Positions 2,110 through 15,420 of a stretch of DNA of 15,420 nucleotides are shown in pieces. Both the position numbers and the translations under genes were made by a program. Location: IMG/VR virus record IMGVR_UViG_2547132271_000004; one strand, 5' to 3'. The notes beneath the pieces were generated by a model. The model was not told the DNA's origin and made no database searches. It saw only the letters and a program-made list of their open reading frames with translations. Numbering within the stretch: position 1 is the stretch's first letter; each line of letters starts with the position of its first letter. The stretch is from a virus (Duplodnaviria; Heunggongvirae; Uroviricota; Caudoviricetes).

Positions 2110-2910
2110 TCACCACCAGGCGTGGAAGTGGTGAACCGGACCAATTCCGTGGCCGACTTCCAGTGAGTCTGCCTGGGCTAACGCTGCCGACAGCCAGCTT
2201 TTTGCTTCCTGAACGGTATCAGCCCAGTTTGTATGACGCGGGCGTAATGCCGCCAGTGCCGCAGAGAGCGTACAACCGGTGCCGTGGGTGTTTTTGGTCA
2301 TAATACGCGGCGCAGCAAAGCGTTGTTCGCCGTCACAGGTAAACAGCCAGTCCGGGCTTTGTTCATCATCCAGATGACCGCCTTTCATCAGCACAGCGCC
2401 ACAGCCCATCGCCAATAATTCACGTCCCTGCTCCAGCATTTCCTGTTCATTACGCGCGTGTGGCGCATCGAGCAAAGCGGCTGCTTCCGGCAAGTTCGGA
2501 GTAATTAATGAAACCTGTGGCAATAATCGACTACGCAGCGTGGCTACCGCCGAAGGTGAAAGCAGAGGGTCGCCGCTTTTCGCCAGCATGACGGTATCCA
2601 GCACCACGTTTTGGATCTGATAACGTTGCAGCCGTTCTGCTACCGCTTCAACGATATCGGTTTCTGCCAACATGCCGATTTTGGTGGTGTCGATTCGCAC
2701 ATCGCTGAACACCGAATCAAGCTGTGCGGCGACAAAATCAGGCTCAATGCGATACACCGACTGTACGCCACGGGTATTTTGCGCCACCAGCGCGGTGATT
2801 ACCGAACAGCCGTAAGCGCCAAGTGCCGAAAAAGTTTTAAGATCGGCCTGAATCCCCGCGCCGCCGCTCGGGTCAGTACCGGCTATCGTCAGAGCGTTAA
2901 TCCGTTTCAT
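2110..2910 (-). CDS. thiD: Hydroxymethylpyrimidine / phosphomethylpyrimidine kinase
   Basis: 266-aa ORF with N-terminus [31 protein letters not shown], characteristic of ThiD (PfkB superfamily). Its start overlaps the thiM stop by 4 nt (ATGA). Confidence 0.9.
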
Positions 2911-3695
2911 GCCTGCACCTCCTGCGTCAGCTGCCAGAGCGCATCAAGGAAATGTGGGACGAAACTGCCCGGCCCTTTGCTTCTGATGACTGCGCGTTCT
3001 CCCGCTTGTTTCATCCAGTGACAGGCAGATGCGACATTTTTCAACTGATCGCCTGGTAATGCACAACAGGCAGCGACAACTGCCGATAATGCGCAGCCAG
3101 TTCCTACTACTCTGGTCATTAACAGGTCACCGCCATGAATGCCAACGGTGCGACAACCATCGGTAACATAATCCACGTCGCCAGTGACCACGACGATTGC
3201 GCCGGTTTCATTTGCCAGAGTTTGTGCGGCGGGCAACGCGTTGGCGGCGGCGTCAGTAGTATCTACACCACGACCACCATTGGCAATGCCTGCTAATGCC
3301 ATGATTTCCGAAGCATTACCGCGTATGGCGCTTGGTTTATGAGACAAGAGTTCCAGACAAAAACGGCGGCGATAATCGAGTGCACCAACCGCTACTGGAT
3401 CAAGCGTCCAGGGCGTTTGGGAGCGTTTTGCCTGTTCTATGGCGGCACGCATCGCCTGTGCGCGTGGCTGCGTCAATGTACCAACGTTAATCAGCAAGGC
3501 ACTGGCAATTGCCGCAAATTGACTGGCCTCTTCGGTTTCGATAACCATCGCTGGCGATGCGCCGAGCGCCAGTAAAGTATTGGCAGTAAAGGTTTGCACC
3601 ACATCATTGGTCATGCAATGCACAAGGGGGGAATATTGGTGAAAAAGGTGTAACACGGGCGCAGATTGCGCCGGACTCAGCAGGTCGACTTGCAT
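2907..3695 (-). CDS. thiM: Hydroxyethylthiazole kinase
   Basis: 262-aa ORF beginning [32 protein letters not shown], typical of ThiM. A Shine-Dalgarno AGGAG lies upstream on the minus strand. Confidence 0.9.
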
Positions 3696-3790
3696 AATTT
3701 GCTCCTGCCATAACGTGAAGAAGCAATGACCTGGCGGTCTGTGACTTCCCTACGCTGGCATTATCCAGATCAGGTGATACGGGTATTTCT
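3696..3790 (-). promoter_or_regulatory. thiM leader with the 3' portion of the TPP (thi-box) riboswitch and expression platform; the 5' half of the aptamer appears to be missing
   Basis: Minus-strand sequence AGAAAUACCCGUAUCACCUGAUCUGGAUAAUGCCAGCGUAGGGAAGUCAC followed by the SD and AUG matches the E. coli thiM thi-box as recalled. Upstream of it (plus 3791 onward) the sequence becomes AT-rich and unrelated to the expected P2/P3 and CUGAGA segment. Confidence 0.7.
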
Positions 3791-3856
3791 TACTAATTCC
3801 TGTTACTAGTTGATAATAAATAAGTTTTTAAGAATGCATAAATTAAAAACCTCAAA

Positions 3857-3880
3857 ACTGACCACACAACTGACCACACA
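3857..3880. repeat. Perfect tandem duplication of the 12-mer ACTGACCACACA
   Basis: Read directly: ACTGACCACACA at 3857-3868 and again at 3869-3880, immediately upstream of a CGAACAA-rich stretch. Confidence 0.9.
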
Positions 3881-4260
3881 TTTCGTTGAAGCTCTACGAA
3901 CAACGACGAACAATAACAAACAAAAGGGAAATTTGCTGGGGGTTTTGCGTAACCGTTATCATTTTCCGGCTATCCGTCATGAAGCTGGTGGATGATCTGC
4001 GTGGTGATTTCCACCATTCAGAGCAGGGGCGGTCATCATGACCATGCCATAACAAAAACCCCATATTCGTGGGTTTTCTGTGTTGTGGCTATTCTGCCGT
4101 TGCCGTGCTGGTGGATATTTCCGGTATGTGGCTCACCATATCGGCATCAGGCCCACCAGCGTGAAGCGTTTTTCATTTTTCGCGGGTATAAAAAATCGAT
4201 GGGGCTGGCAGTCCGGAAGACGTCAGGGTACAGAGATTTGACCCGCCCCTCCCTGTGCAT

Positions 4261-4468
4261 GAGCACAATAAGTAACCGAAGGCGGAATTCCGCCCTCGGT
4301 GCTCACATATGAGAAACGATATTTCTTACACCGATACCCTTTATTTGGGTATCGCGAGTAAGCCCCAAAATCTGGGTGTTACTCTTACTACCCAAACTAC
4401 GGGTAGTTTCATAGTCGAGTTGCAGATCTGCAACTCGCCACCAGTTGCTAAGTGCATTTTTGCACTTT
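4261..4468. other. Cluster of five consecutive, sequence-distinct stem-loops in non-coding DNA downstream of the packaging operon
   Basis: Inverted repeats read directly: CCGAAGGCGG/CCGCCCTCGG around a GAATTC centre (4277-4300); CGATACCC-N7-GGGTATCG (4332-4354); ACTACCC-N7-GGGTAGT (4387-4407); perfect palindrome CGAGTTGCAGATCTGCAACTCG (4416-4437); AAGTGCA-TTTTT-TGCACTT (4450-4468). Confidence 0.6.
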
Positions 4469-4484
4469 CGGTAATATCAACCAG

Positions 4485-4775
4485 TTACCGCCGTAAGTGC
4501 TCCGGCTTCCTCCACTGGTAAGTATTTTTCGCGCTCTCCCTCCGTTGTTGAGAACGGCGACGGTATGCCAGCAACTCAAGAACTCTGGTTCGTATGTTGC
4601 GCATATCCACGCCGTTAAGCTCAATACCGTCACGGCGCATTACCTCAGCCACCACACGCGCGTAATTTTCGGCTATCACGCTGTCCGGCTGTGTAGCCTG
4701 TTCGTCAGGCTGCTGACTGATTCCGGTAATGCGGCGAATTATTTTTAGTAGATCAGTTTCAGTCATTCTCGTCAT
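4485..4775 (-). CDS. Hypothetical small basic protein, translationally coupled to TerL
   Basis: 96-aa ORF whose ATG overlaps the TerL stop (ATGA). The C-terminus is Arg-rich. No family recognised. Confidence 0.5.
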   Translation of the reverse strand: MTRMTETDLLKIIRRITGISQQPDEQATQPDSVIAENYARVVAEVMRRDGIELNGVDMRNIRTRVLELLAYRRRSQQRRESAKNTYQWRKPEHLRR

Positions 4776-6433
4776 ACCCCATCAAATGCCGCAAGTCGCT
4801 CTTTCTGGCTGTCGCTCATATCAAATGCAAATTCCTCATGCTCAGCCTGGAATGTGCCAAACGCCATCAGCGCCGCAACGCTCGGGTCTATCTTATTGGA
4901 TGATTTTTTCTTGTTCGGCTTGATATTGGCGTTCGCGTCACTCTGCATCACAACATTACTCATTGACCAGGCCAGCACCGGATCACCACGATGAACAATC
5001 ACCTTCCGGTTAACAAAAACTTCGAACGATTTCGCCGCCGGACTAAAACGAAGGTACGTTTGCGGGAACGGCTCCACCTCAAATCCCGCTCCCTGTAGCT
5101 GCGTCCTCAGGTGCGTGGCGTTCCATGTATCGAAACCCACCAGCCTGATATTGAAATTCTCTGCATCCGCCATGATGTCATCACGGATACGGTCATAATC
5201 AATGCAGTCACCCGGTGTTGTGCGTATCCAGCCCGCCTTTGCCCACTGGCGATAGATGGCGCGGTTTTTATTGGCAGGGTTCTGTAGCTGAAATTCCGGT
5301 AGATAGTGACGTGAAACCAGCATAATCTTTTTACCGACCGGAAAGGCATAGCACACGCTGGAAATATCGCTGGTTGATGATAAGTCCAGCCCCGCATAGC
5401 ACTCCTGCCCGTATAAATCCGCCTCAGCGAACGTTCCGGCGCACTCCGCCCATGCACCGTTACCCATCCACGGCGTAGCCCCCTGACACCAGATATTGAA
5501 TCGCTTGGTGAGCATTTCCACCCACTGCGACGGAATACCCCGCGCTTTCTGGATGGTTGAGGCAAGTTTTTCACGATCGACGGAAACATCGATATTGGGA
5601 TTCGCCTTTATCCACATCGCCGGATCGTCAACCTCGCTTTCATCATCCAGCTCGTAAATCAGTACGAACATGGATTCGTTCACCTCTTCACCATCCAGTA
5701 TCTGGCAGCAATAGTCGTAGTGTTGTTTACAGGCTGAAACAACGTTGCTCCCCGATGTGGTGATGGCAAATAACAGCCCCTCCGGACGCGCCCCCATCCC
5801 CAGTTCAAGTGCGGAATAAACCCCGTTGTCTGGGTGCAGGTGATATTCATCCACAATGGCAAGACTCGGGTTTGTCCCCTCAATGGTTGCCGCTTTTGCT
5901 GCCAGTGGCTTTAACAGGCTGTTGGTTTTCGGGTGTATCACCTTGTGCGCCTGAATATTTACCCGCTTTCGTAACGGTCGGGATAAAAGGCACATCTGAC
6001 GCGCATCATCAAACACGATCCGCGCCTGATCACGACTCACGGCGGCGGTGTAAATATCCTGCTGCCCGTTTTCCATAACCAGAAACCAGTTAGCCAGGAT
6101 AGCGGCGACCGTGGATTTGGCATTTTTTCGCGGTACTTCAATGAATGCGCTGGTGTATTTGCGCCGTCCGGTGGCCTTAACCTTAAATCCCAGGATGCAG
6201 GCAAAGGCGAACTGCTGCCACGGCTCAAGTTCAATGGGGCTACCGCGCATTGCGCCTTTTACGTGCGGGCACACCCGGGAAAAGGCAATAAACCGCTCCA
6301 CGACCTCCGGATCGAACGTGTAAAGGGAGTTTTCAAGGTCAGAAAAATACCGTTTAACAGCCTGTTTCAGTCGTTTACAGGCCGTAATTTTGCCGTTTTT
6401 TACGCCTTCTGCGTACTCATGCCAGGCGGTCAA
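4772..6433 (-). CDS. terL: Terminase large subunit
   Basis: 553-aa ORF with an N-terminal ATPase region (Walker A-like VPRKNAKST) and a C-terminal nuclease-like region. It overlaps the TerS 3' end. Confidence 0.9.
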   Translation of the reverse strand: MTAWHEYAEGVKNGKITACKRLKQAVKRYFSDLENSLYTFDPEVVERFIAFSRVCPHVKGAMRGSPIELEPWQQFAFACILGFKVKATGRRKYTSAFIEVPRKNAKSTVAAILANWFLVMENGQQDIYTAAVSRDQARIVFDDARQMCLLSRPLRKRVNIQAHKVIHPKTNSLLKPLAAKAATIEGTNPSLAIVDEYHLHPDNGVYSALELGMGARPEGLLFAITTSGSNVVSACKQHYDYCCQILDGEEVNESMFVLIYELDDESEVDDPAMWIKANPNIDVSVDREKLASTIQKARGIPSQWVEMLTKRFNIWCQGATPWMGNGAWAECAGTFAEADLYGQECYAGLDLSSTSDISSVCYAFPVGKKIMLVSRHYLPEFQLQNPANKNRAIYRQWAKAGWIRTTPGDCIDYDRIRDDIMADAENFNIRLVGFDTWNATHLRTQLQGAGFEVEPFPQTYLRFSPAAKSFEVFVNRKVIVHRGDPVLAWSMSNVVMQSDANANIKPNKKKSSNKIDPSVAALMAFGTFQAEHEEFAFDMSDSQKERLAAFDGV

Positions 6434-6773
6434 GTTCGTCCTCTTCCTCTGTTTCCGGTGGATTTCTGCGACGGCTTACCGGGTCAAAACCCAGCAAAGA
6501 AGCCATTTTGATCATTATTCTTTCTGCGTCAGCCTTTGCGCTCAGTGCGGGGTTTCTGCTCTCGCTGCCCTGACTGTTAACAATGCTGAACCCGCGCGTC
6601 GCAAGGTCTTCGACGGCTTTGCGGTATATAGAGTAGTTAACGCAATACAGTTCCAGATTGCTCCAGTCGGCGGGGGTAAGGTCTTCCCGCCCGGAAAGCT
6701 GGCGCGATTTTTCCTTCCACTGCCTGACCGCGATTTCATCCAGGTAAGCGGGGGCTTTTGGTGGTCTTGCCAT
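6417..6773 (-). CDS. terS: Terminase small subunit (P27-family-like)
   Basis: Product MARPPKAPAYLDEIAVRQWKEKSRQL...LELYCVNYSIYRKA...LGFDPVSRRR resembles P27-type TerS. The ORF track extends to 6914, but that extension translates the structured candidate cos region, so the internal Met at 6773 is preferred. Confidence 0.75.
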   Translation of the reverse strand: MARPPKAPAYLDEIAVRQWKEKSRQLSGREDLTPADWSNLELYCVNYSIYRKAVEDLATRGFSIVNSQGSESRNPALSAKADAERIMIKMASLLGFDPVSRRRNPPETEEEDELDRLA

Positions 6774-7061
6774 GTTCTTTTTTCGCCCAATTATTTTCAA
6801 AAAAATTACCGTGCACAAAAATTTGAGGGGGCGGTCGGTGTCCGGCAGGGACGGTTTCGTCCTGAAAACCACCCCCACCCCCTCTGACGGCCTCACCAGC
6901 GATTGCGAAAACATTCCATGACCTCGCGGTCACGGTCGGTTAATCGCTTCGCTGTGGTGCGTTTTGTGCGCCCTGTCCTGTTGGCTTTGTGCTCTGTCTC
7001 CTGTGTCTTCCATGTGTCACGCTGCCTTATCAGTCCACGTATCAGCCTGGTTTGCTCCTGT
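6774..7061. other. Candidate cos / packaging recognition region between HNH and terS
   Basis: 288-bp gap in the position where HK97-like phages carry cos. Contains a nested imperfect palindrome (GAGGGGGCGG ... CCACCCCCTC enclosing GGACG-GTTT-CGTCC, about 6825-6884) and a T/G-skewed tract with recurring CTGTC and TGTGTC motifs (about 6956-7030). Confidence 0.4.
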
Positions 7062-7502
7062 TCAGTCATCATCGCCATACATCCAGTCGTTACGGTGTGC
7101 CGCCCGTTCTTCCTGCTCGCGATACATGCCCGCTTTACGGTTTGCTTTCGTGGCTGGATCTTCCCGTGTCGTCTTACGGTTGTGGCACGTCTGGCACAAT
7201 GCCTGGTGATTCCACTCAGGCCAGAAGAGAACATCACCGCCGCCATTGATGGGAATGATGTGATCCACCACAAGAGCTGGCGTATAAATCCCCTTAGCCA
7301 GACAACGCACGCATAACGGGTTTTTGCTCAGGTACAGGGCGCGGTATTTGTCCCACTGTCGGGAATACCCGCGCGCGCGGCGGTGTCCCCGTCTGGCATC
7401 CTCTGCACGCCATGCAGCCCGCCTGTGCTCTTCACACTTGCCGGACTTCACGCGCTTATTACAGCCAGGCTCAGTGCATCGCCTTAATGGTTGCCACGGC
7501 AT
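7062..7502 (-). CDS. HNH endonuclease (packaging-associated)
   Basis: 146-aa ORF with Cys-rich zinc-binding motifs and the HNH core (CTEPGC, CVRC, DHIIP, HQALCQTCHNRK). Its ATG overlaps the connector stop. Confidence 0.9.
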   Translation of the reverse strand: MPWQPLRRCTEPGCNKRVKSGKCEEHRRAAWRAEDARRGHRRARGYSRQWDKYRALYLSKNPLCVRCLAKGIYTPALVVDHIIPINGGGDVLFWPEWNHQALCQTCHNRKTTREDPATKANRKAGMYREQEERAAHRNDWMYGDDD

Positions 7503-7804
7503 CAGTACACCCCTACGTCACGATAAACTGACCAGAGCGCAGAAATAGCCATAGGCAGTTCCGAGTGCTCCACTGGTGAAACCGCTTCCCGGTTCTCGTA
7601 CAGGAAAGCGATGTACATCAGGCAACCAACACGCATTGCCGGGGTAAATTCCAGCCCGTCTTCAAAACGTTTCCCGATATGCTTCTGGCAGGCTTCCAGC
7701 GCCGCATCGGTATACATTTTCAGAAGTTCGCCTTCACCGGATAAATCATCATCAAGTCGAAGATGTGCCCTGACTTCATCAGGTGTAATTCTGGCTTCAC
7801 TCAT
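7502..7804 (-). CDS. Head-tail connector / adaptor protein (gp6-like)
   Basis: 100-aa product MSEARITPDEVRAHLRLDDD... resembles gp6-like head-tail connectors. Start chosen at the internal Met with RBS GGGAGAAAAG; the longer ORF-track N-terminus would overlap the portal. Confidence 0.65.
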   Translation of the reverse strand: MSEARITPDEVRAHLRLDDDLSGEGELLKMYTDAALEACQKHIGKRFEDGLEFTPAMRVGCLMYIAFLYENREAVSPVEHSELPMAISALWSVYRDVGVY

Positions 7805-9011
7805 CTTTTCTCCCTTTAATTTCCACAGTCTGTTTCCATGCCTGGCTGAACTCATCACCACCTTCACGCGGCGGCATACCCTCACGCTCACGGGCTTCGT
7901 TCGGATTCATGATCCCGTTCTTAATCCCTTTCTCATACGTGGCATAACGTTCGGTGGGTGTGGCGCGTAATAAATCGGCTGAATCAAACTCAACCAGATA
8001 ACGGGTACCAGGTACGGGAGAAGCCACCAGCAAAGCGGCCTTGATTTGCTGTTCGAAGTTCGCTAGCCACGGGCGCATTGTCATGGTCAGAAACGCGCGG
8101 CTTGCCTCGCTGAAATTGCTGTAGGTGCTGTTGCTGTATTCCTGCAGAAAAATAGGCGATACGTTGAACATGCGGGCGATGTCTTCAATGGAGAAGCGAC
8201 GGGAGGCCAGCCATTCCGCATCCTGGTTACTCATTCCCAGTTGCCTGTAATCCATGCCCCCTTCAAGGATTGGCGTTTTTCCGGCATTTTTCGCCCCCTT
8301 GTAGCGTTCCAGAGCATCCAATGCCTGTTTACCTTTCACGCCGTCCAGCCATTCGCCTGACGTGATAATCCCTGCCGCCATCATGCCATCTTTCATAATG
8401 CTGGCTCCGTGACGCTGTTGAGCAAGGCCAAGCCCCAGCGCCTCACGGCAAATCGTGACGGGGGAACGCCCCAGAAAGCCATCATCCGAGGCATAGCGGA
8501 GATGCAAAACTTCTTCCTGTAAATACGTGCGCACCGTTCCTGTACAGGGTTCGGTGATGGTATAGCGGTATTTGTGTGCGCCTGTGCGTTCCGGTACAAC
8601 ACACCCCGGCGCATAAGGATGAAGTGATTTTGGCTGCCCGTCCTGCCCCCACTCAATAACCGCATAGGCGTTACCGTTCAGCAGGCAGTGACGCATCATT
8701 GTGCGTTTAAACTGGTAAGGTGTCTGGCACGAATTAGGCTGCTCATTCAGCAGAATATCTACCGGGTGACTGTCCAGCCATTCCCGCGCCTCCCTGCCCT
8801 TGTCATTACGTACCAGATACAGATAACACGGCATCGTGGCCACCGCCTCAGCGATGACAGAAACCGCATTCATCACTGCAGGCAATGATTCAGCCGTCCC
8901 GGCAGAAACATATTCTCCGGATCCGGTATTCGGTACGCCGGACAGCGCCAGAAAATCATCAATGGACAGGTTACGCTGCTCGCTTTTTTTACGACTAAAA
9001 GGCCACCACAT
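7797..9011 (-). CDS. Portal protein (HK97 family)
   Basis: About 404 aa from the internal Met (MWWPFSRKK...), which directly follows the protease stop. HK97-type portal signatures seen (GKTPILEGGMDYRQLG, FNVSPIFL). Confidence 0.85.
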   Translation of the reverse strand: MWWPFSRKKSEQRNLSIDDFLALSGVPNTGSGEYVSAGTAESLPAVMNAVSVIAEAVATMPCYLYLVRNDKGREAREWLDSHPVDILLNEQPNSCQTPYQFKRTMMRHCLLNGNAYAVIEWGQDGQPKSLHPYAPGCVVPERTGAHKYRYTITEPCTGTVRTYLQEEVLHLRYASDDGFLGRSPVTICREALGLGLAQQRHGASIMKDGMMAAGIITSGEWLDGVKGKQALDALERYKGAKNAGKTPILEGGMDYRQLGMSNQDAEWLASRRFSIEDIARMFNVSPIFLQEYSNSTYSNFSEASRAFLTMTMRPWLANFEQQIKAALLVASPVPGTRYLVEFDSADLLRATPTERYATYEKGIKNGIMNPNEAREREGMPPREGGDEFSQAWKQTVEIKGRKDE

Positions 9012-9012
9012 A

Positions 9013-9573
9013 TCACAACCCCGCCAGCTCAGACCAGCGATGACGATTATTTCCTGTCGGACGTAATTCAGGGTGCTGTGCAAACAACGAACGGTGGGCA
9101 ATCTCCACGCCAGATTCTGGATAAGCAGGCATCGACGTTATTGTGATTTCACGGAGTTCAGCGGCGGTTACGGTACGCAGATACGGTTTTTGCGCGATAC
9201 TCCACTCCTCGCATAATGCGCGAAAACCAAAGCTCATTCCTGTAATGTCGCCACGCTCCACCAGCGTAAGCACATCTTTTCCAAGCTGGGTATCCGGCGG
9301 TGTCAGTTCAAAACGTAACCCGGTGTTATCCTCAGTCAGTACCAGAGTGCCGGATTTGGTGCGCCCCAGCAGTTGGGTATAGTCATGCTCATACAGGCAG
9401 CGCACATCATTACCCGTCGCCAGATAGTCAGCAAAAGCCCCCGGCGTGAACTGTTCGCGGAATTCGTCCCAGATAATTTCTGAAAGGCTGTTCCAGCGAA
9501 CGGCATACCCCACCAGCTTTTTATTGCTGGCGGTCAGTTCAGATGTGCGGATTTCAAAATCGGTGTTTTTCAT
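9013..9573 (-). CDS. Prohead maturation protease (HK97 family)
   Basis: 186-aa ORF with HK97 protease-like segments (YEHDYTQLLGRT, GMSFGF, ITSMPAYPESG). Confidence 0.85.
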   Translation of the reverse strand: MKNTDFEIRTSELTASNKKLVGYAVRWNSLSEIIWDEFREQFTPGAFADYLATGNDVRCLYEHDYTQLLGRTKSGTLVLTEDNTGLRFELTPPDTQLGKDVLTLVERGDITGMSFGFRALCEEWSIAQKPYLRTVTAAELREITITSMPAYPESGVEIAHRSLFAQHPELRPTGNNRHRWSELAGL

Positions 9574-9593
9574 CGGTGTACTCCATAAAGCTG

Positions 9594-9614
9594 AAAAAGG
9601 AGGCCGCAGCCTCC
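9594..9614 (-). terminator. Intrinsic terminator/attenuator between the capsid and protease genes
   Basis: On the minus strand: GGAGGC-UGCG-GCCUCC hairpin followed by UUUUU (plus-strand AAAAA GGAGGC CGCA GCCTCC), lying between the capsid stop (9628) and protease start (9573). Confidence 0.55.
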
Positions 9615-9627
9615 TCCTTACTCATGA

Positions 9628-10797
9628 CTAGCCAGCTTTCATTTCCAGAATTTTGATGGCGTTTGAATCCACCACACCACCGCCCAGATATTTATCCGTG
9701 TGGACCTTGTAGAATCCGGGTTCAGTAATGTTGTCCGGTCGGGTGCGAATCCCTGTTACATGATCAACGATGAAATAACCACGACTGAAATCGCCAACCG
9801 CTAGCGGTGCTTTTCCTGCGCCGATGTCCGGCATGGACTCCAGGCAGTAAACAGGACGACCAAGCAACATATCCGGCGCACCTTCTTTAAGGCTGTCGCG
9901 CCAGATATAATCGCCGTTCTCATTTTTCAGCTTCTGTAGTGTCCCTGCCGTGCCCGAGTTCATCACCCAGACGGCATTTTTGCGGTATTTCGCTTTCAGC
10001 TTGTAGAGAATGTCGATCAGTTCGTCCGCTGTAATGGCGGTTCCACTTGCCGCTACTATTTTTTCAATGGTGCCAAAAGCGCGGGTTTTGTCACTGGTCG
10101 CCGCACGGGTGTAAGCCATGAAGCCTTTCGGCTTGCCGTTACCGTCGCCATTAACAAAATCATCCTCTTCGGTGCTGGCGAACGTGTCGGCAATTTCGGA
10201 GGATAACCAGCCCAGAATATCCACCTCTGAAAAATCCAGGATTTCCTGCGTGGTTTTCGGGTAGGCGTAGATCGGATTCAACTTGATGGTTACGCGTTCA
10301 ATTTTCGGGGTGTTGGTTTCACTGCGTGCGCTGCCTTCTGTGCCTCGTCCTACAGTTGCGCCGCCAGTGGAAACCAGTTTCTGAAACTCATTTGATTTTG
10401 CGGTCTTCACGGTCGCGATCACGCGCATAACACTGTCATCCTGTAGCTGGCGCATGACTTCGCGATCAAGCTCAGGAATTACGGTATATCCGCCATCCCT
10501 GCCGCTGTCAGTGCTGGTGGACAGTGATCGCACATCTCCGGTTACGATGTAGTTACGCAATTCATCAGATGATAATTTCTGGATGCCCGTTCCTGGCTTG
10601 CTGCGTTCTTCATCAGCCACAGACTCGAGGCGGGAAATTTCTGTGTCGAGGGCATCAGCTTTTGCACGCAGTTCATCAAACTGTTTGCCTTCTTCAGCGT
10701 TCAGACTACGGTTTTCACTGTCGGCTTTTTCCAGCAGGGATCGCATCTGGTTTTTCAGGGCGTTTTTTTGCTGGCGGAGTTCGATTAATTTCTTCAT
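9628..10797 (-). CDS. Major capsid protein (HK97 fold) with N-terminal coiled-coil delta/scaffold domain
   Basis: 389-aa ORF. The first ~100 aa are a charged coiled-coil (LRQQKNALKNQMRSLLEKADSE...), followed by an HK97-like capsid core. Confidence 0.9.
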   Translation of the reverse strand: MKKLIELRQQKNALKNQMRSLLEKADSENRSLNAEEGKQFDELRAKADALDTEISRLESVADEERSKPGTGIQKLSSDELRNYIVTGDVRSLSTSTDSGRDGGYTVIPELDREVMRQLQDDSVMRVIATVKTAKSNEFQKLVSTGGATVGRGTEGSARSETNTPKIERVTIKLNPIYAYPKTTQEILDFSEVDILGWLSSEIADTFASTEEDDFVNGDGNGKPKGFMAYTRAATSDKTRAFGTIEKIVAASGTAITADELIDILYKLKAKYRKNAVWVMNSGTAGTLQKLKNENGDYIWRDSLKEGAPDMLLGRPVYCLESMPDIGAGKAPLAVGDFSRGYFIVDHVTGIRTRPDNITEPGFYKVHTDKYLGGGVVDSNAIKILEMKAG

Positions 10798-11627: not shown

Positions 11628-11922
11628 ACCGTTTCACGGGATCTCGCATTCTGCGCCTTATTTTCCACAGATATTCGATCATCGCTTCCACCTGCTCACG
11701 GTTGGTTGCGAAAATTTCCCCGGTCAGTGAGCTACGCAGAAAATCATGATGATCCACAACAAACAACGCATCGGAAGAAAGCAGACGGCGATATTTTTTT
11801 GCTGTCATGGTTTCCAGATCATCAAAATCATGAAACTTTTTATGTTGCTGGACTTCTTCAAATGTCACTGGAATGTCCCCTCTGTTGTCGCTAAAACGGT
11901 ATGTTGTCCCCGTACGGATCAT
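11626..11922 (-). CDS. Hypothetical protein
   Basis: 98-aa ORF ending at the bidirectional terminator. It overlaps the SSB 3' end by 32 nt, so the real start may be internal. No family recognised. Confidence 0.45.
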   Translation of the reverse strand: MIRTGTTYRFSDNRGDIPVTFEEVQQHKKFHDFDDLETMTAKKYRRLLSSDALFVVDHHDFLRSSLTGEIFATNREQVEAMIEYLWKIRRRMRDPVKR

Positions 11923-12316
11923 CGTGCTGACCCGTCTGCTGTTTTGCCCTGTTCAGTGCGTCAGTGGCCTGCCCCTGCTGGCCTTTTTTGCCGCCCGGTC
12001 GCGCTGTTCGCGCACTGATCACGCTGTCTGCGATAACCTGCCAGCCCTGCCGCGTTTCGCCGTTCTGGCCTGTCCACTGGCTTACCTGCATGTTACCCGC
12101 CACGCTCACCAGTTCGCCTTTGTGGTGTTTTGCCAGTGCGTCGGCCTGTCTGCCAAACGCCAGGACGGATAACCACATCATCGCCGTTCCGTCATCTGCC
12201 TGGCTGCACGGAAGGGGGACCGCCATACTAGCCATCGTCATTTGTGTACCCTTGCTGGTGGTCTTTAACTGCGGGTCAGCCACCAGCCGCCCGTAAGCCG
12301 CTATCTGTGCTGTCAT
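11891..12316 (-). CDS. Single-stranded DNA-binding protein (SSB-like OB fold) with SSB-type C-terminal tip
   Basis: 141-aa product aligns by eye to the E. coli SSB OB core (MWLSVLAFGRQADALAKHHKGELVSVAGNMQVSQWTGQNGETRQ vs [44 protein letters not shown]). It has a Gly/Gln-rich linker and ends DDPYGDNIPF, like the host SSB tip DDDIPF. Confidence 0.75.
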   Translation of the reverse strand: MTAQIAAYGRLVADPQLKTTSKGTQMTMASMAVPLPCSQADDGTAMMWLSVLAFGRQADALAKHHKGELVSVAGNMQVSQWTGQNGETRQGWQVIADSVISARTARPGGKKGQQGQATDALNRAKQQTGQHDDPYGDNIPF

Positions 12317-12558
12317 GCTGTCTGCTCTCCGGTTTTAACGTTGATGGTTGTCACCTGTTCCGCTTCGGCAATCTCCCGTTCTGTCAGCGTGGCAAAGTTT
12401 GCAGCTGCCGTTGTCATGAATGCGCTAATCAGTTCGGGAAGTGCTTTCGCATATCCTTCCCCGGCGTTGCGGTCGATGATTTTTATCGACACCCTTAACC
12501 AGTGTTCCGTCAAATCAAGGGCGTGCGATTGTGATTTTTTTGTGTGCTTCGCTGTCAT
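12313..12558 (-). CDS. Hypothetical small protein adjacent to the origin
   Basis: 81-aa ORF whose stop overlaps the SSB start (ATGA). No family recognised. Confidence 0.45.
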   Translation of the reverse strand: MTAKHTKKSQSHALDLTEHWLRVSIKIIDRNAGEGYAKALPELISAFMTTAAANFATLTEREIAEAEQVTTINVKTGEQTA

Positions 12559-12603
12559 AGGCTTTATCTCACAGCAGTAAATTAAAATTTTTGCGTTTTA
12601 ACC

Positions 12604-12832
12604 CTTCACCTGTTCACCTTTTGATATTTTCCATTTAAATTCATACTGTTAAGGGGTGAACAGTTTCACAAAAACTATTCACCAACTGTTCACCACTGTT
12701 CACCCTTGAAGCTCAATAAACAACCAAAAAGGTGAACAGTGAATAGTTTGGTGAACAGTTCATAAATAACTGTTCACCCTATAATATACTGATATAAAAG
12801 ATAATTATGACAGGGTGAACAGTGGTGAACAG
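12604..12832. repeat. Iteron-type replication origin: about nine copies of GGTGAACAG in both orientations flanking an AT-rich segment
   Basis: GGTGAACAG or its complement CTGTTCACC read at about 12611, 12655, 12686, 12696, 12731, 12750, 12770, 12814 and 12824. AT-rich spacer ATAATATACTGATATAAAAGATAATTATGA at 12781-12812. It sits immediately 3' of the primase-helicase gene. Confidence 0.7.
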
Positions 12833-12845
12833 TTATTCAATAAGT

Positions 12846-14663
12846 TTAATTTTTGCTATCGTCATTAGTGACCGATACACATGATGGCATCCAGTCTTCT
12901 GATTCCTCCGTCAGTGTCACGTTTGAACGAAAACCGTGCTTCGTTTTCCGTTTCATATACTCCCTGCCATATTCCGCCATTGCCCCCGGCATATCTTTAC
13001 CGAAGCGCGTCAGTGTTACAGGTTTACCAAACCCATGTGCCCTCATATAAGCCAGATAGGCATGATAGAGATACCTGCGTGGGCTGAATGGCACAATTTC
13101 AGCATTACCCACTAACAGGCCATCACACATTACCGACGCCATGAGATAGCCGCAGAAGTCCACCAGCGAATCCCCCTCTCGCTTTATCGCCAGTGCTTCT
13201 TCAGATTTCTGCTGCTCATATAACAGGCGTCTGGCTTCGTCCTGGTCAGCAAACCGTGTAAGCAGATGGCGAATCACTACCGCCAGCTCACCTTCTATTT
13301 TTTCCGCCAGCATTGGATCGCGTTCGTTCTCCGGTACAACTTCCGAAAAATTGAATATCACCCGACGACGTGAGATCCCCCCGCTGCGGTCACTGAATGA
13401 CATGGCGTTATTGTTAACCGCCAGCACTACTGCCGGAATACGCGTTGAGTAGGGGGCTTTGTGTTTCGGGTCAATTGCCACCTTGTCACCGCCTGTAATA
13501 GCCTTAATCCCTGCCCCATCACCAGCGTAGCGGGTCATATCCGGCATGATAATCAGCGAAAAGCCAACCACTAACGCGCGTTCCCTTGCATCTTCCAGCG
13601 CCTTCATGCTTGCCGATACTGTGTTGGCCTTACCCGCCAGCATGGTGCAAATCTCCGCCATCACGCTTTTACCACTTCCCCCTGGACCTGTTACCTCAAT
13701 GAATAACTGCCAGTCGTACCGGTTCGCCAGCACCATGAATAATGCAGCCAGTACGCGATCCGCCTTGCGGTCATTCTCAGCCACCGAACGGCGTAACCAC
13801 TTCCAGAAATTCGGCGCATGTGTTGCCAGCGTTTCCCCCTCTGCTGGTGGGCTGAAAGGTAATTCACTGGCAATTAACAACCAGTCGTTTTTGTTATGCT
13901 CCCGAAAATTACCTGTTCTGGTATCAAATACCCCGTTACTGAATCCAATCAGGTTACGGGCTGTATTCCCCATTACAGGCAAACTTAACTTCATGGTATC
14001 GACCGCCGATTTAATGGCGTTCTGCGAATAGCTGATCTCCGCATCAATGAAAATCTGTGCCATAGCTCGCTGTAATTCTTTATCCTGTACTGGCTCCCAT
14101 ACAACGCCGTTGTAATGGTGAACAGTGTCAGAGTCAGCATGAATCGCCAGTTCACCGCCATAATGTGCCAGGAGAACTTCGCCGCGTTGACTTGCTCCCA
14201 TCTGGTTAAGCGCCAGTGATGAAGCGTTATCGTCTTTTACCCGCTCTTTTTTCTTTACAGGCAGTTCAACTACCTTTTTCTTTTCCGCCTGCTCTGCCCG
14301 TTCACGTTCCAGATATTCGCGCCAGTTCTCCCGTTTCTGGCTGTGCATTCCTTCAGGGTAATAATCAGCATCCCTGACACCTGCCACTGCCAGTTTCTGC
14401 CCGATGGTATTAACAAGCCCCGGACGCAATAACCCCGCCTGATAGAGACGCACGCGATAGCGTCCGTCCGGTACGATTTGCAGGTTGTCCAGTTCGGCAA
14501 GTTGTTGCTCTCCAAGCCAGACAGGTGGCACGTTATCGCCAGCCAGTCGCCCGTCCTGTTCCTGCCACTGTTTCGCATGTGCCCACGCATCACTACCCGC
14601 AAAAATGATGACTTCCGTCATTTTGTCACGCGGCTGGTGTTTTAAATTTGGCGCTTTTTTCAT
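12846..14663 (-). CDS. Primase-helicase / replication initiator (P4-alpha / D5-type C-terminal P-loop NTPase)
   Basis: About 605 aa from MKKAPNLK (ATGA overlap with the upstream gene; RBS GGAGAG). Walker A VTGPGGSGKS and Walker B-like LIIMPDM, with a D5_N/primase-C-like central region. Confidence 0.85.
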   Translation of the reverse strand: MKKAPNLKHQPRDKMTEVIIFAGSDAWAHAKQWQEQDGRLAGDNVPPVWLGEQQLAELDNLQIVPDGRYRVRLYQAGLLRPGLVNTIGQKLAVAGVRDADYYPEGMHSQKRENWREYLERERAEQAEKKKVVELPVKKKERVKDDNASSLALNQMGASQRGEVLLAHYGGELAIHADSDTVHHYNGVVWEPVQDKELQRAMAQIFIDAEISYSQNAIKSAVDTMKLSLPVMGNTARNLIGFSNGVFDTRTGNFREHNKNDWLLIASELPFSPPAEGETLATHAPNFWKWLRRSVAENDRKADRVLAALFMVLANRYDWQLFIEVTGPGGSGKSVMAEICTMLAGKANTVSASMKALEDARERALVVGFSLIIMPDMTRYAGDGAGIKAITGGDKVAIDPKHKAPYSTRIPAVVLAVNNNAMSFSDRSGGISRRRVIFNFSEVVPENERDPMLAEKIEGELAVVIRHLLTRFADQDEARRLLYEQQKSEEALAIKREGDSLVDFCGYLMASVMCDGLLVGNAEIVPFSPRRYLYHAYLAYMRAHGFGKPVTLTRFGKDMPGAMAEYGREYMKRKTKHGFRSNVTLTEESEDWMPSCVSVTNDDSKN

Positions 14664-14959
14664 TTCTGCTCTCTCCACGCGGCAATCATGTTTTTTAGTT
14701 CCTGTAGTTTTTTATCAACATCCATACATGACACATGGTTATTTCTGGAAAGCGGGATTTCCCGACTGAATCTGCTAATAAAGATCTCCACGTTCAGCGA
14801 ACTAAGAAATGAATAGCCATCACGGATAAAATACACACGGTCAAACATCAGTTCTTTTACCGTTACTCTGTTACCGTTCTTATCCAGATAAATAGCGCCG
14901 GGGATAATTTGGGGGTGTGCATAACCGCTGGCAGTCAAGCCAGATAAATACGTTCTCAT
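14660..14959 (-). CDS. Hypothetical protein (AT-rich cassette gene B)
   Basis: 99-aa ORF with RBS GGGGA upstream. Its stop overlaps the primase ATG. Visibly AT-rich. No family recognised. Confidence 0.55.
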   Translation of the reverse strand: MRTYLSGLTASGYAHPQIIPGAIYLDKNGNRVTVKELMFDRVYFIRDGYSFLSSLNVEIFISRFSREIPLSRNNHVSCMDVDKKLQELKNMIAAWREQK

Positions 14960-14965
14960 GATTAT

Positions 14966-15286
14966 TTATCCCCGATTTGAATCAGTATTCGCTTTCTTTA
15001 TAGCATTTAATGCATCTGTGGCATTTTCAATGGTGCACCGTAACGAAATATCAAAATGTCCAAGCATTGCCAGTAACAAACCGATATTACCCATATCAAT
15101 GCGCATGGCCTTTTCGTCATAGTCCTCATTTTCTGACGCATGCCACATCAGGCTACCAATTGACGCAACAGCCATTGATATATTGTCAGTAGCCCCATCC
15201 GCAGCGGAATAAATCTTTTTAGCAATATCATGCTCACAGTTAAAATGCGGATTAATCAGGTACTGGTAATTTGACATATCAGGCAT
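14966..15286 (-). CDS. Hypothetical protein (AT-rich cassette gene A)
   Basis: 106-aa ORF with RBS AGGGGG upstream, 6 bp from gene B. Visibly AT-rich with a sharp switch to GC-rich sequence at about 15287. No family recognised. Confidence 0.55.
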   Translation of the reverse strand: MPDMSNYQYLINPHFNCEHDIAKKIYSAADGATDNISMAVASIGSLMWHASENEDYDEKAMRIDMGNIGLLLAMLGHFDISLRCTIENATDALNAIKKANTDSNRG

Positions 15287-15420
15287 GGCACACCCCCTGA
15301 CGAATACGGGCGGCGAATACCATCACGCAGCCAGCCGGGGATTGCTGGCGTGCTTCCTGTTCGCTGGTGGCCACGATGTGAATCACGCGCGGTTGTGCGG
15401 TGCTCAGGGCGATAAAACGC
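15279..15420 (-). CDS. 3' end of an upstream GC-rich gene continuing beyond the window (product unknown)
   Basis: Minus-strand frame open from the window edge to TGA at 15281-15279, ending ...AARIRQGVCHA. The stop overlaps the start of gene A. Not in the ORF track because no start codon is in view. Confidence 0.4.
   Translation of the reverse strand, partial: RFIALSTAQPRVIHIVATSEQEARQQSPAGCVMVFAARIRQGVCHA

Follow-up and report, generated by a model that had tools for sequence, protein, structure and literature searches.

A capsid-forming PICI (cf-PICI)-type satellite of ~15.8 kb is integrated in the centre of the thiM TPP riboswitch of its Escherichia host, where its right attachment site (attR) splits the aptamer and probably leaves the downstream thiMD operon blind to TPP; its leader is predicted to be locked in the ON state, its transcription would be whatever enters from the island end, and excision would reverse the arrangement. 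The known targets of integrative elements are tRNA genes, tmRNA genes and some protein genes, and as a rule the interrupted sequence is restored by the element. Here a well-studied model riboswitch is cut and left unrebuilt in natural isolates. The split falls on a 14-bp core that is used recurrently, by elements with different late genes and in hosts of different species. In what follows, the window is the whole stretch of 15,420 nucleotides that was analysed, which runs from the host genes across this junction and ends inside the island.

The Junction in the thiM Leader

The host side of the window contains yegW, yegX, thiD and thiM, all of them intact ORFs on the minus strand. The features of the thiMD operon, of its leader and of the adjoining island end are the following:

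2110..2910, minus strand: thiD, HMP/HMP-P kinase, second gene of the thiMD operon; intact 266-aa ORF
2907..3695, minus strand: thiM, hydroxyethylthiazole kinase; intact 262-aa ORF
3696..3742, minus strand: thiM expression platform, from sequence and fold predictions
3705-3702, minus strand: SD GGAG, with the thiM ATG at 3695-3693
3726-3715, minus strand: anti-SD strand TTGCTTCTTCAC, in the expression platform
3743..3790, minus strand: retained 3' part of the TPP aptamer (AGA of J3-2, P2 3' strand, P4/P5, P1 3' strand), from the cmscan alignment
3774-3749, minus strand: P4/P5 in the retained aptamer part, from the RF00059 alignment
3777..3790, minus strand: att core AGAAATACCCGTAT, the 14-bp identity block common to attB, attL and attR; this copy is the attR core
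3791..3853, minus strand: AT-rich right island end, which varies among island variants, each copy ending in ...AGTA before the core
3854..3923, minus strand: 70-nt direct repeat inside both island ends (repeat search, copies 97% identical), putative arm-type integrase sites

The exact protein encoded by thiD in the window occurs in public collections as Escherichia ThiD, and homologous loci are annotated thiD. Upstream of thiM, the minus strand reads AGAAATACCCGTATCACCTGATCTGGATAATGCCAGCGTAGGGAAGTCAC...GGCAGGAGCAAATT from 3790 to 3696, directly followed by the thiM ATG at 3695; AGAAATACCCGTATCACCTGATCTGGATAATGCCAGCGTAGGGAAGTCAC spans 3790 down to 3741, and the leader portion GGCAGGAGCAAATT, with the anti-SD region, lies closer to the ATG. 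This leader matches the native one and agrees with the original prediction, made from the sequence of the window, that the 3' portion of the aptamer and the expression platform are kept. From 3791 upward the DNA is AT-rich and bears no relation to the thiM leader, and the P2 5' strand, P3 and most of the CUGAGA element are replaced by it, also as predicted (cmscan and sequence).

An Rfam scan of the whole window at the gathering threshold, which is 54.3 bits for RF00059, finds no TPP riboswitch. A permissive cmscan of the window does report RF00059 at 3729-3811 on the minus strand, with 37.5 bits and thus below the gathering score, whereas the intact controls, the empty sites of K-12 and of an island-free contig (L021), score 71.2 and 70.5 bits, respectively. 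The break lies inside the thiM aptamer, and the scan yields the partial match that had been foreseen. In this match P4/P5 (ACCUGAUCUGGAUAAUGCCAGCGUAGGGAA), which is kept and native-identical at 3776-3746, and the P1 3' strand align perfectly to the model, P3 and the P2 5' strand are missing, and the CUGAGA element is reduced to UAAGA, with a G-to-A change at the junction. The idea that the island end mimics the lost P1 and P2 strands was rejected, given that the pairs that island sequence would supply for these helices, those with the retained P1 3' strand among them, are non-canonical in the cmscan alignment and the score is under the threshold; in the RF00059 alignment the segment 3791..3853 has no pairing partners and offers no surrogate for P1, P2 or P3. 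Judged by its sequence, the window locus is a TPP riboswitch fragment and not a functional member of RF00059.

The position of the break, placed by the original prediction at about 3790, is exactly 3790. In L021, which belongs to the same lineage and has an identical ThiM, identity to the window from 3790 downward is 100.000% over 3,384 nt, and above 3790 the two sequences diverge fully, with rcnR, the promoter region and a complete aptamer in L021 in place of the island DNA. This contig comes from a look-up by identical ThiM that returned 24 contigs, of which L021 and L022 were shown, both island-free, with 22 similar places grouped under L021; empty attB sites are thus abundant in the window's own lineage. 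Among complete E. coli genomes that match, homology begins at 3790 in 5,350 of 5,425, at a locus annotated 'riboswitch'. Because the 14-mer of the core occurs a single time in the window, against 0.00 occurrences expected by chance, and because of these empty-site comparisons, the junction is neither a chance resemblance nor native sequence. No complete aptamer is present at the locus, and genomes without the island differ from the window above 3790.

Attachment Sites and the Displaced Half of the Aptamer

Since the window ends inside the island, we infer the attL of its genome from homologous carriers, given that those with 100% identical island proteins have an intact attL. The island of E. 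coli GF66.1 (L001) has rcnR on one side and thiM on the other. Its rcnR side reads ...gactcggggtgcccttctttgtgaaggctg AGAAATACCCGTAT tttctcattt..., with the gene of a 406-aa integrase starting 189 nt after the core, and its thiM side reads ...aggaattagta AGAAATACCCGTAT cacctgatctgg..., so that AGAAATACCCGTAT forms a direct repeat at both island ends with a spacing of 15,772 bp. The same string is found once at empty sites and once in the window. With slashes at the boundaries of the core, attL is ...gactcggggtgcccttct..gtgaaggctg/AGAAATACCCGTAT/tttctc... and attR is ...aattagta/AGAAATACCCGTAT/cacctgatctgg... A search for the other junction, the missing 5' half and a direct repeat had been proposed, and the 5' half and the 14-bp repeat are found at that junction in L001 and L017, and also in L007 and L011. 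In complete carriers, the thiM promoter region and the aptamer 5' half lie ~15.8 kb away at the integrase end, so that the thiMD copy at attR no longer adjoins the native promoter region or a complete aptamer, as had been anticipated.

The core is identical in 12 island copies and in the Salmonella attL (three-way attB/attL/attR and variant alignments), and the structure lines of intact aptamers place it over the AGA of J3-2, the P2 3' strand and J2-4. From these sequences, the aptamer is split by conservative site-specific recombination without replacement sequence, and because the island brings none, neither junction should have a working aptamer; the half at attL scores 20.5 bits against RF00059 in E. 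coli and 22.2 bits in Salmonella. The thiM riboswitch binds TPP through two arms, the pyrimidine sensor (P2/P3 with CUGAGA) and the pyrophosphate sensor (P4/P5), and requires both of them. A single arm is left at either junction, and given this known architecture neither should bind TPP. The P3 loop of the displaced 5' half reads TTTG in some E. coli carriers (L001 32574-32577, L007 attL), which is also the Salmonella sequence, whereas K-12 and further carriers have TGCG (compared: L002, L011, L017, L021); the difference may be plain polymorphism or may have been left by exchange at the att site.

The predicted attP, AGAAATA-CCCG-TATTTTCT, likely forms an imperfect inverted repeat around the probable crossover region, as is expected for core-type integrase sites. 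The string has 0 matches in viral contigs and 0 in metagenome contigs, an absence that constitutes weak evidence. Inside both island ends, at 32687-32756 and 48227-48296 in L001, lies the 70-nt block, which in the window holds a tandem TGTGTGGTCAGT x2 at 3857-3880, a motif that occurs twice versus 0.06 times expected. TTGTT(T/C)GT repeats are also present in the block. The Salmonella relatives, with integrases 69-74% identical, have a tandem TGTG(T/A)GGTCAGT pair before int, with one co-varying base. The TGTGTGGTCAGT-bearing block is a probable candidate for the arm-type Int sites and possibly holds Xis/AlpA sites too; a doubled motif of a similar kind has been reported in the attP of other PICIs (PMC10111431).

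The Inserted Element

The genes of the island within the window are arranged in a late module and a replication region:

4772..10797, minus strand: island late module (Pfam, all matches above curated cut-offs; annotation agrees in L001 and L017)
4772-6433, minus strand: TerL (Pfam)
within 6417-6914, minus strand: TerS (Pfam)
7062-7502, minus strand: HNH (Pfam)
within 7502-7891, minus strand: head-tail connector (Pfam)
within 7797-9101, minus strand: portal (Pfam)
9013-9573, minus strand: prohead protease, S78 (Pfam)
9628-10797, minus strand: HK97-type major capsid protein (Pfam)
11891..15420, minus strand: island replication region (Pfam; gene order as in L001 and L017)
11891-12316, minus strand: SSB (Pfam)
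12846-14678, minus strand: D5-type primase/helicase (Pfam)
14660-14959, minus strand: DUF4222 (Pfam); the replication region also holds a separate small ORF

The island continues past 15420, the end of the window, with Icd-like, AlpA, DUF6387, the integrase and attL in the part that follows. The genes run in the order int, DUF6387, AlpA, Icd-like, DUF4222, primase, SSB, capsid, protease, portal, connector, HNH, TerS and TerL. The integrase, the gene of which was examined in L001, contains Arm-DNA-bind_3 (PF13356) and Phage_integrase (PF00589) domains (Pfam), and the annotation of L001 and L017 lists no gene for tail or lysis functions from attL to attR. By this layout the island fits the capsid-forming type of PICI; its core-to-core length of 15,772 bp is slightly over the 10-15 kb used as a cf-PICI search criterion (10.1101/2022.09.08.507074). 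A search of phage records with the island gives only partial matches of 75-77%, and the island is thus not deposited as a named phage. In the carriers inspected, the thiM locus harbours satellites and one decayed element of undefined type only.

Some variation was observed at the right end of the element. The GF66.1 copy is ~750 bp longer than that of the window in the non-coding DNA between TerL and attR (L001 46917-48226 vs window 3924-4771), and the extra DNA holds a 121-nt direct repeat (L001 47264-47384 and 47702-47822; 96% identical) rich in short palindromes. In the window, the otherwise 'non-coding' island end is occupied at 3810-4521 by three short ORFs of 61, 106 and 70 aa on the plus strand, directed away from thiM, and PGAP annotates a hypothetical protein at the island end in one variant (L017 18102-18371), not in GF66.1.

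Expected Expression of thiMD

In ViennaRNA predictions, GCCAGCGUAGGGAAG (3759-3745) pairs with CUUCUUCACGU..GGC (3723-3707) and thereby occupies the anti-SD sequence. This anti-sequestor helix is predicted for the intact leader without ligand and belongs to the MFE structure of all truncated leaders that were folded. To obtain the SD-sequestering helix (UUGCUUCUUCAC with GGCAGGAGCAA), the aptamer of the intact leader has to be barred from pairing, which mimics TPP binding. As the retained half holds GCCAGCGUAGGGAAG, the strand that pairs with the anti-SD sequence, the truncated leader is expected from these folds to stay in the ON state, TPP-blind and translation-competent. The predicted thermodynamic probability that all four SD bases are unpaired is a modest 0.10-0.36 in leaders of this insertion type, varying with the assumed 5' end.

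As to the transcription of thiMD, the original prediction proposes that it may depend on island-end sequences or on read-through from the packaging operon, with a possible regulatory cost to the host. A crude consensus scan finds no sigma-70 consensus match on the thiM strand from 3790 to 4737 (~950 nt upstream), and it calls one further feature on that strand:

4275..4300, minus strand: terminator-like GC-rich hairpin between the packaging genes (3' of TerL) and thiM, from a pattern scan (consensus match only)

A second terminator-like hairpin, at 4060-4073, is called on the opposite strand only. The AT-rich island end contains TATTAT at 3818-3813, a near-consensus -10-like hexamer picked out as a candidate by eye. 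At attL, the host promoter region contains a TTTACA-17-TACCAT match that is now directed into int (consensus scan). The hybrid attL leader was also considered as a notable structure or a terminator before int and discarded, with a fold z-score of -1.38 and no terminator in the scan.

The same split might instead be polar and silence thiMD, the promoter being 15.8 kb off with a terminator in between, so that carriers need external thiamine; we consider this possible, though unlikely. thiD is required for de novo thiamine synthesis, and silencing would thus entail a real fitness cost that is tolerated in thiamine-rich habitats. The lack of a sigma-70 consensus match within ~950 nt, the hairpin at 4300-4275 on the thiM strand and the expectation from PICI biology that late genes of the island stay silent unless a helper phage is present all point in this direction, and so does the small number of carriers, as the junction is present in 75 of 5,426 complete E. 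coli genomes. However, the consensus scan is crude and the near-consensus TATTAT lies in the AT-rich end, and thiM and thiD are intact in all carriers inspected, including the long-resident, IS-decayed elements of a second type described below. The leader 3' half is moreover invariant across 12 island copies, which together with the intact genes argues, weakly, that the operon is still used.

In the reading that we prefer, and which we hold to be likely, the operon would be freed from TPP control and not silenced. The tyrosine integrase of the element recombines its AGAAATACCCGTAT with the matching 14 bp in the middle of the thiM aptamer. The thiM promoter region, the P1 5' strand, the P2 5' strand, P3 and the CUG are thereby carried to attL, facing int, and the P2 3' strand, P4/P5, the P1 3' strand, the expression platform and thiMD are left at attR. 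The aptamer is split because the exchange is conservative and the element is without replacement sequence, and thiMD would escape TPP control because neither half should be able to form the ligand pocket. With the platform predicted to be locked ON, only transcription that enters from the island end would set thiMD output. If the element were excised precisely, the riboswitch would be restored, with the junction 5'-CTGAGAAATACCCGTATCACC-3'.

Recurrence and Host Range

Against the 5,425 matching E. coli genomes, the host flank of the window reaches no more than 91.8% identity (~90% with GF66.1), and the ThiM of the window is filed as 'MULTISPECIES [Escherichia]', which makes the host probably a cryptic-clade Escherichia and not E. 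coli. The island proteins, in contrast, are 100% identical to those of the copy in E. coli GF66.1, a chicken-meat isolate. This comparison clearly points to an island that has recently moved from one species to another, using the same core for integration.

Beyond this pair, the integrase cluster at 96% identity comprises 588 member sequences (protein search), and the attR string is present in 9 IMG/VR provirus contigs. An integrase-based scan of species-representative genomes returned no relatives, and the exact attR string is likewise absent there; since no species-representative genome carries the island, taxonomic breadth rests on the protein search and the contig look-ups. Salmonella integrases 69-74% identical to that of the island are located at fimbrial-rcnB-...-int with the same core, the attL reading ...gaaggctg AGAAATACCCGTAT tttcta... 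and the island-end DNA being different. The next group of integrases, 66-67% identical and from E. coli, is at another site, macB-cspD, and integrase site specificity therefore shifts between ~67% and 69% identity. The thiM-site and macB-cspD integrases thus constitute a useful pair for mapping the determinants of integrase specificity. In L015/L016 (2097-2500) the integrase of this second group, which has hundreds of E. coli members, lies by macB, between cspD and the island, and precedes a near-identical AlpA/DUF4222/primase module.

The site is also shared by satellites of ~11 kb (L007 and L011, both IMG/VR proviruses; core-to-core ~11.0-11.1 kb) that have the common int-DUF6387-AlpA-primase module and both att junctions. 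Instead of the cf-PICI module, the late genes of L007 and L011 encode a 637-aa ClpP-protease/capsid fusion, a lambda tail-assembly-I-like protein and DUF1441, and PADLOC detects no defence system among the cargo genes of the 11-kb variant. Taken at the level of sequence, the thiM site is used recurrently in Escherichia and Salmonella.

That the right-end sequence is near-identical in many carriers could also reflect a single ancestral junction, inherited or spread with its flanks by homologous recombination, and not repeated integration. This is very improbable, because the host flank of the window matches contigs of its own lineage that lack the island at 100%, and no E. coli at more than 91.8%, while the island proteins equal the E. 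coli copy, because the Salmonella carriers combine diverged integrases and different island-end DNA with the same core, and because different late modules use the same site. The suggestion in the original prediction that the aptamer 5' half was deleted, which would call for illegitimate recombination or a junction deletion on arrival of the island and would have removed the promoter as well, accounts for the absence of that half within a window that stops short of the other junction but is barely credible, given that every complete carrier examined has the 5' half intact beside rcnR with the 14-bp core at attL, that the break matches the core to the base in independent hosts, and that a carrier with an intact attL encodes island proteins 100% identical to those of the window.

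A Second Element in the Same Aptamer

A second type of junction, located 28 nt deeper in the thiM aptamer, was found in 12 of the 5,426 E. coli genomes, several of them clonal. The element at this junction is unrelated to the AGAAATACCCGTAT satellites and has a core of its own, ATGCCAGCGTAG. With slashes at the boundaries, its attL is ...ctggataATGCCAGCGTAG/ttatccaag (L019 5345-5334, minus strand) and its attR ...ttcttaga/ATGCCAGCGTAG/GGAAGTC (L018 ~2990-3016). The element is decayed, its integrase fragment being broken by IS3. Because the ATGCCAGCGTAG core lies further 3', nearly the whole aptamer is kept at attL, where the PGAP annotation has a TPP riboswitch immediately before the integrase fragment (L020 17814-17908; locus L020 17814-19748). 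The anti-sequestor strand GCCAGCGUAGGGAAG is kept in both insertion types. On this sequence evidence, the thiM aptamer is exploited by two unrelated recombination systems.

Implications

Carriers of these insertions are probably natural riboswitch knock-outs, in which the importance of TPP control of thiMD under natural conditions can be gauged, and they extend the types of att site by a cis-regulatory RNA. They also set an annotation trap, as pipelines lose the riboswitch call in carriers of the first island and place a TPP riboswitch before an integrase fragment in those of the second type. Similar boundary effects could, by analogy, explain the TPP and SAM-IV matches described as 'encoded' by prophages in a survey of Mycolicibacterium (PMC8190616).

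A bolder proposal, which we regard as quite unlikely, is that riboswitch aptamers are a genuine class of att site, with thiM as a hotspot with at least two independent cores, and that their splitting is functional and not incidental. If so, aptamers would be picked like tRNA genes, for sequence that is invariant across genera. Splitting would leave thiMD TPP-blind yet translatable while setting the int-alpA genes of the satellite downstream of a host promoter, and the insertion would act as a reversible switch, excision bringing back thiamine control.

Comparison with Known Systems

A riboswitch had been put forward as an unusual integration target, and we agree. None of the papers searched in full text reports an insertion in the riboswitch of thiM or in any other of the TPP class, though the locus may stand in PICI supplementary tables under its flanking genes. 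The main text on cf-PICIs counts six E. coli attB sites and leaves them unnamed (10.1101/2022.09.08.507074), and the available text of the PICI papers, in which E. coli PICIs use eight attC sites, names neither thiM nor a riboswitch. With the cf-PICIs, of which EcCIEDL933 is the prototype, the thiM island shares its small size, an early region with int, AlpA and primase, its own HK97 capsid, protease, portal, connector, HNH, TerS and TerL, and the lack of tail and lysis genes. For cf-PICIs, close relatives in other species are reported (10.1101/2022.09.08.507074), and the thiM island is likewise found across species. It differs from these elements in that its integration module is also used by the ~11-kb satellites with the ClpP-capsid fusion.

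Structured RNAs are established targets of integration, as exemplified by the tRNA and tmRNA genes used by sublocation-specific tyrosine integrases (Williams, 2002, as cited in PMC10111431) and by ffs, the gene of the 4.5S RNA, a recently described phage integration site (PMC12540744). Like those systems, the thiM element relies on an arm-binding tyrosine integrase and a short identity block inside a highly conserved structured-RNA sequence, with int beside attL, arm-type repeats (putative in our case) around the core and a site that is used across species. Unlike them, it targets a cis-regulatory aptamer in a 5' leader and not an RNA gene, and it brings no replacement, so that the target is left split and not rebuilt.

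Elements that interrupt genes without replacing what they cut have been framed as 'regulated gene integrity' or active lysogeny, an example being the helper-embedded PICIs in prophage late genes (PMC10111431). The thiM case resembles them in that the target is disrupted, the attP contains no surrogate, precise excision would restore the target, the integrases are of the PICI type and the attP motifs are doubled in tandem. At thiM, however, the insertion breaks a ligand sensor and not a coding sequence, the downstream genes are intact, and there is no sign of excision timed to a host process. Compared with the E. coli thiM TPP riboswitch (RF00059) itself, the window locus retains everything from the AGA of J3-2 through P4/P5, the P1 3' strand and the whole expression platform, whereas it is without the P1 5' strand, the P2 5' strand, P3 and the CUG and scores under the threshold of the family.
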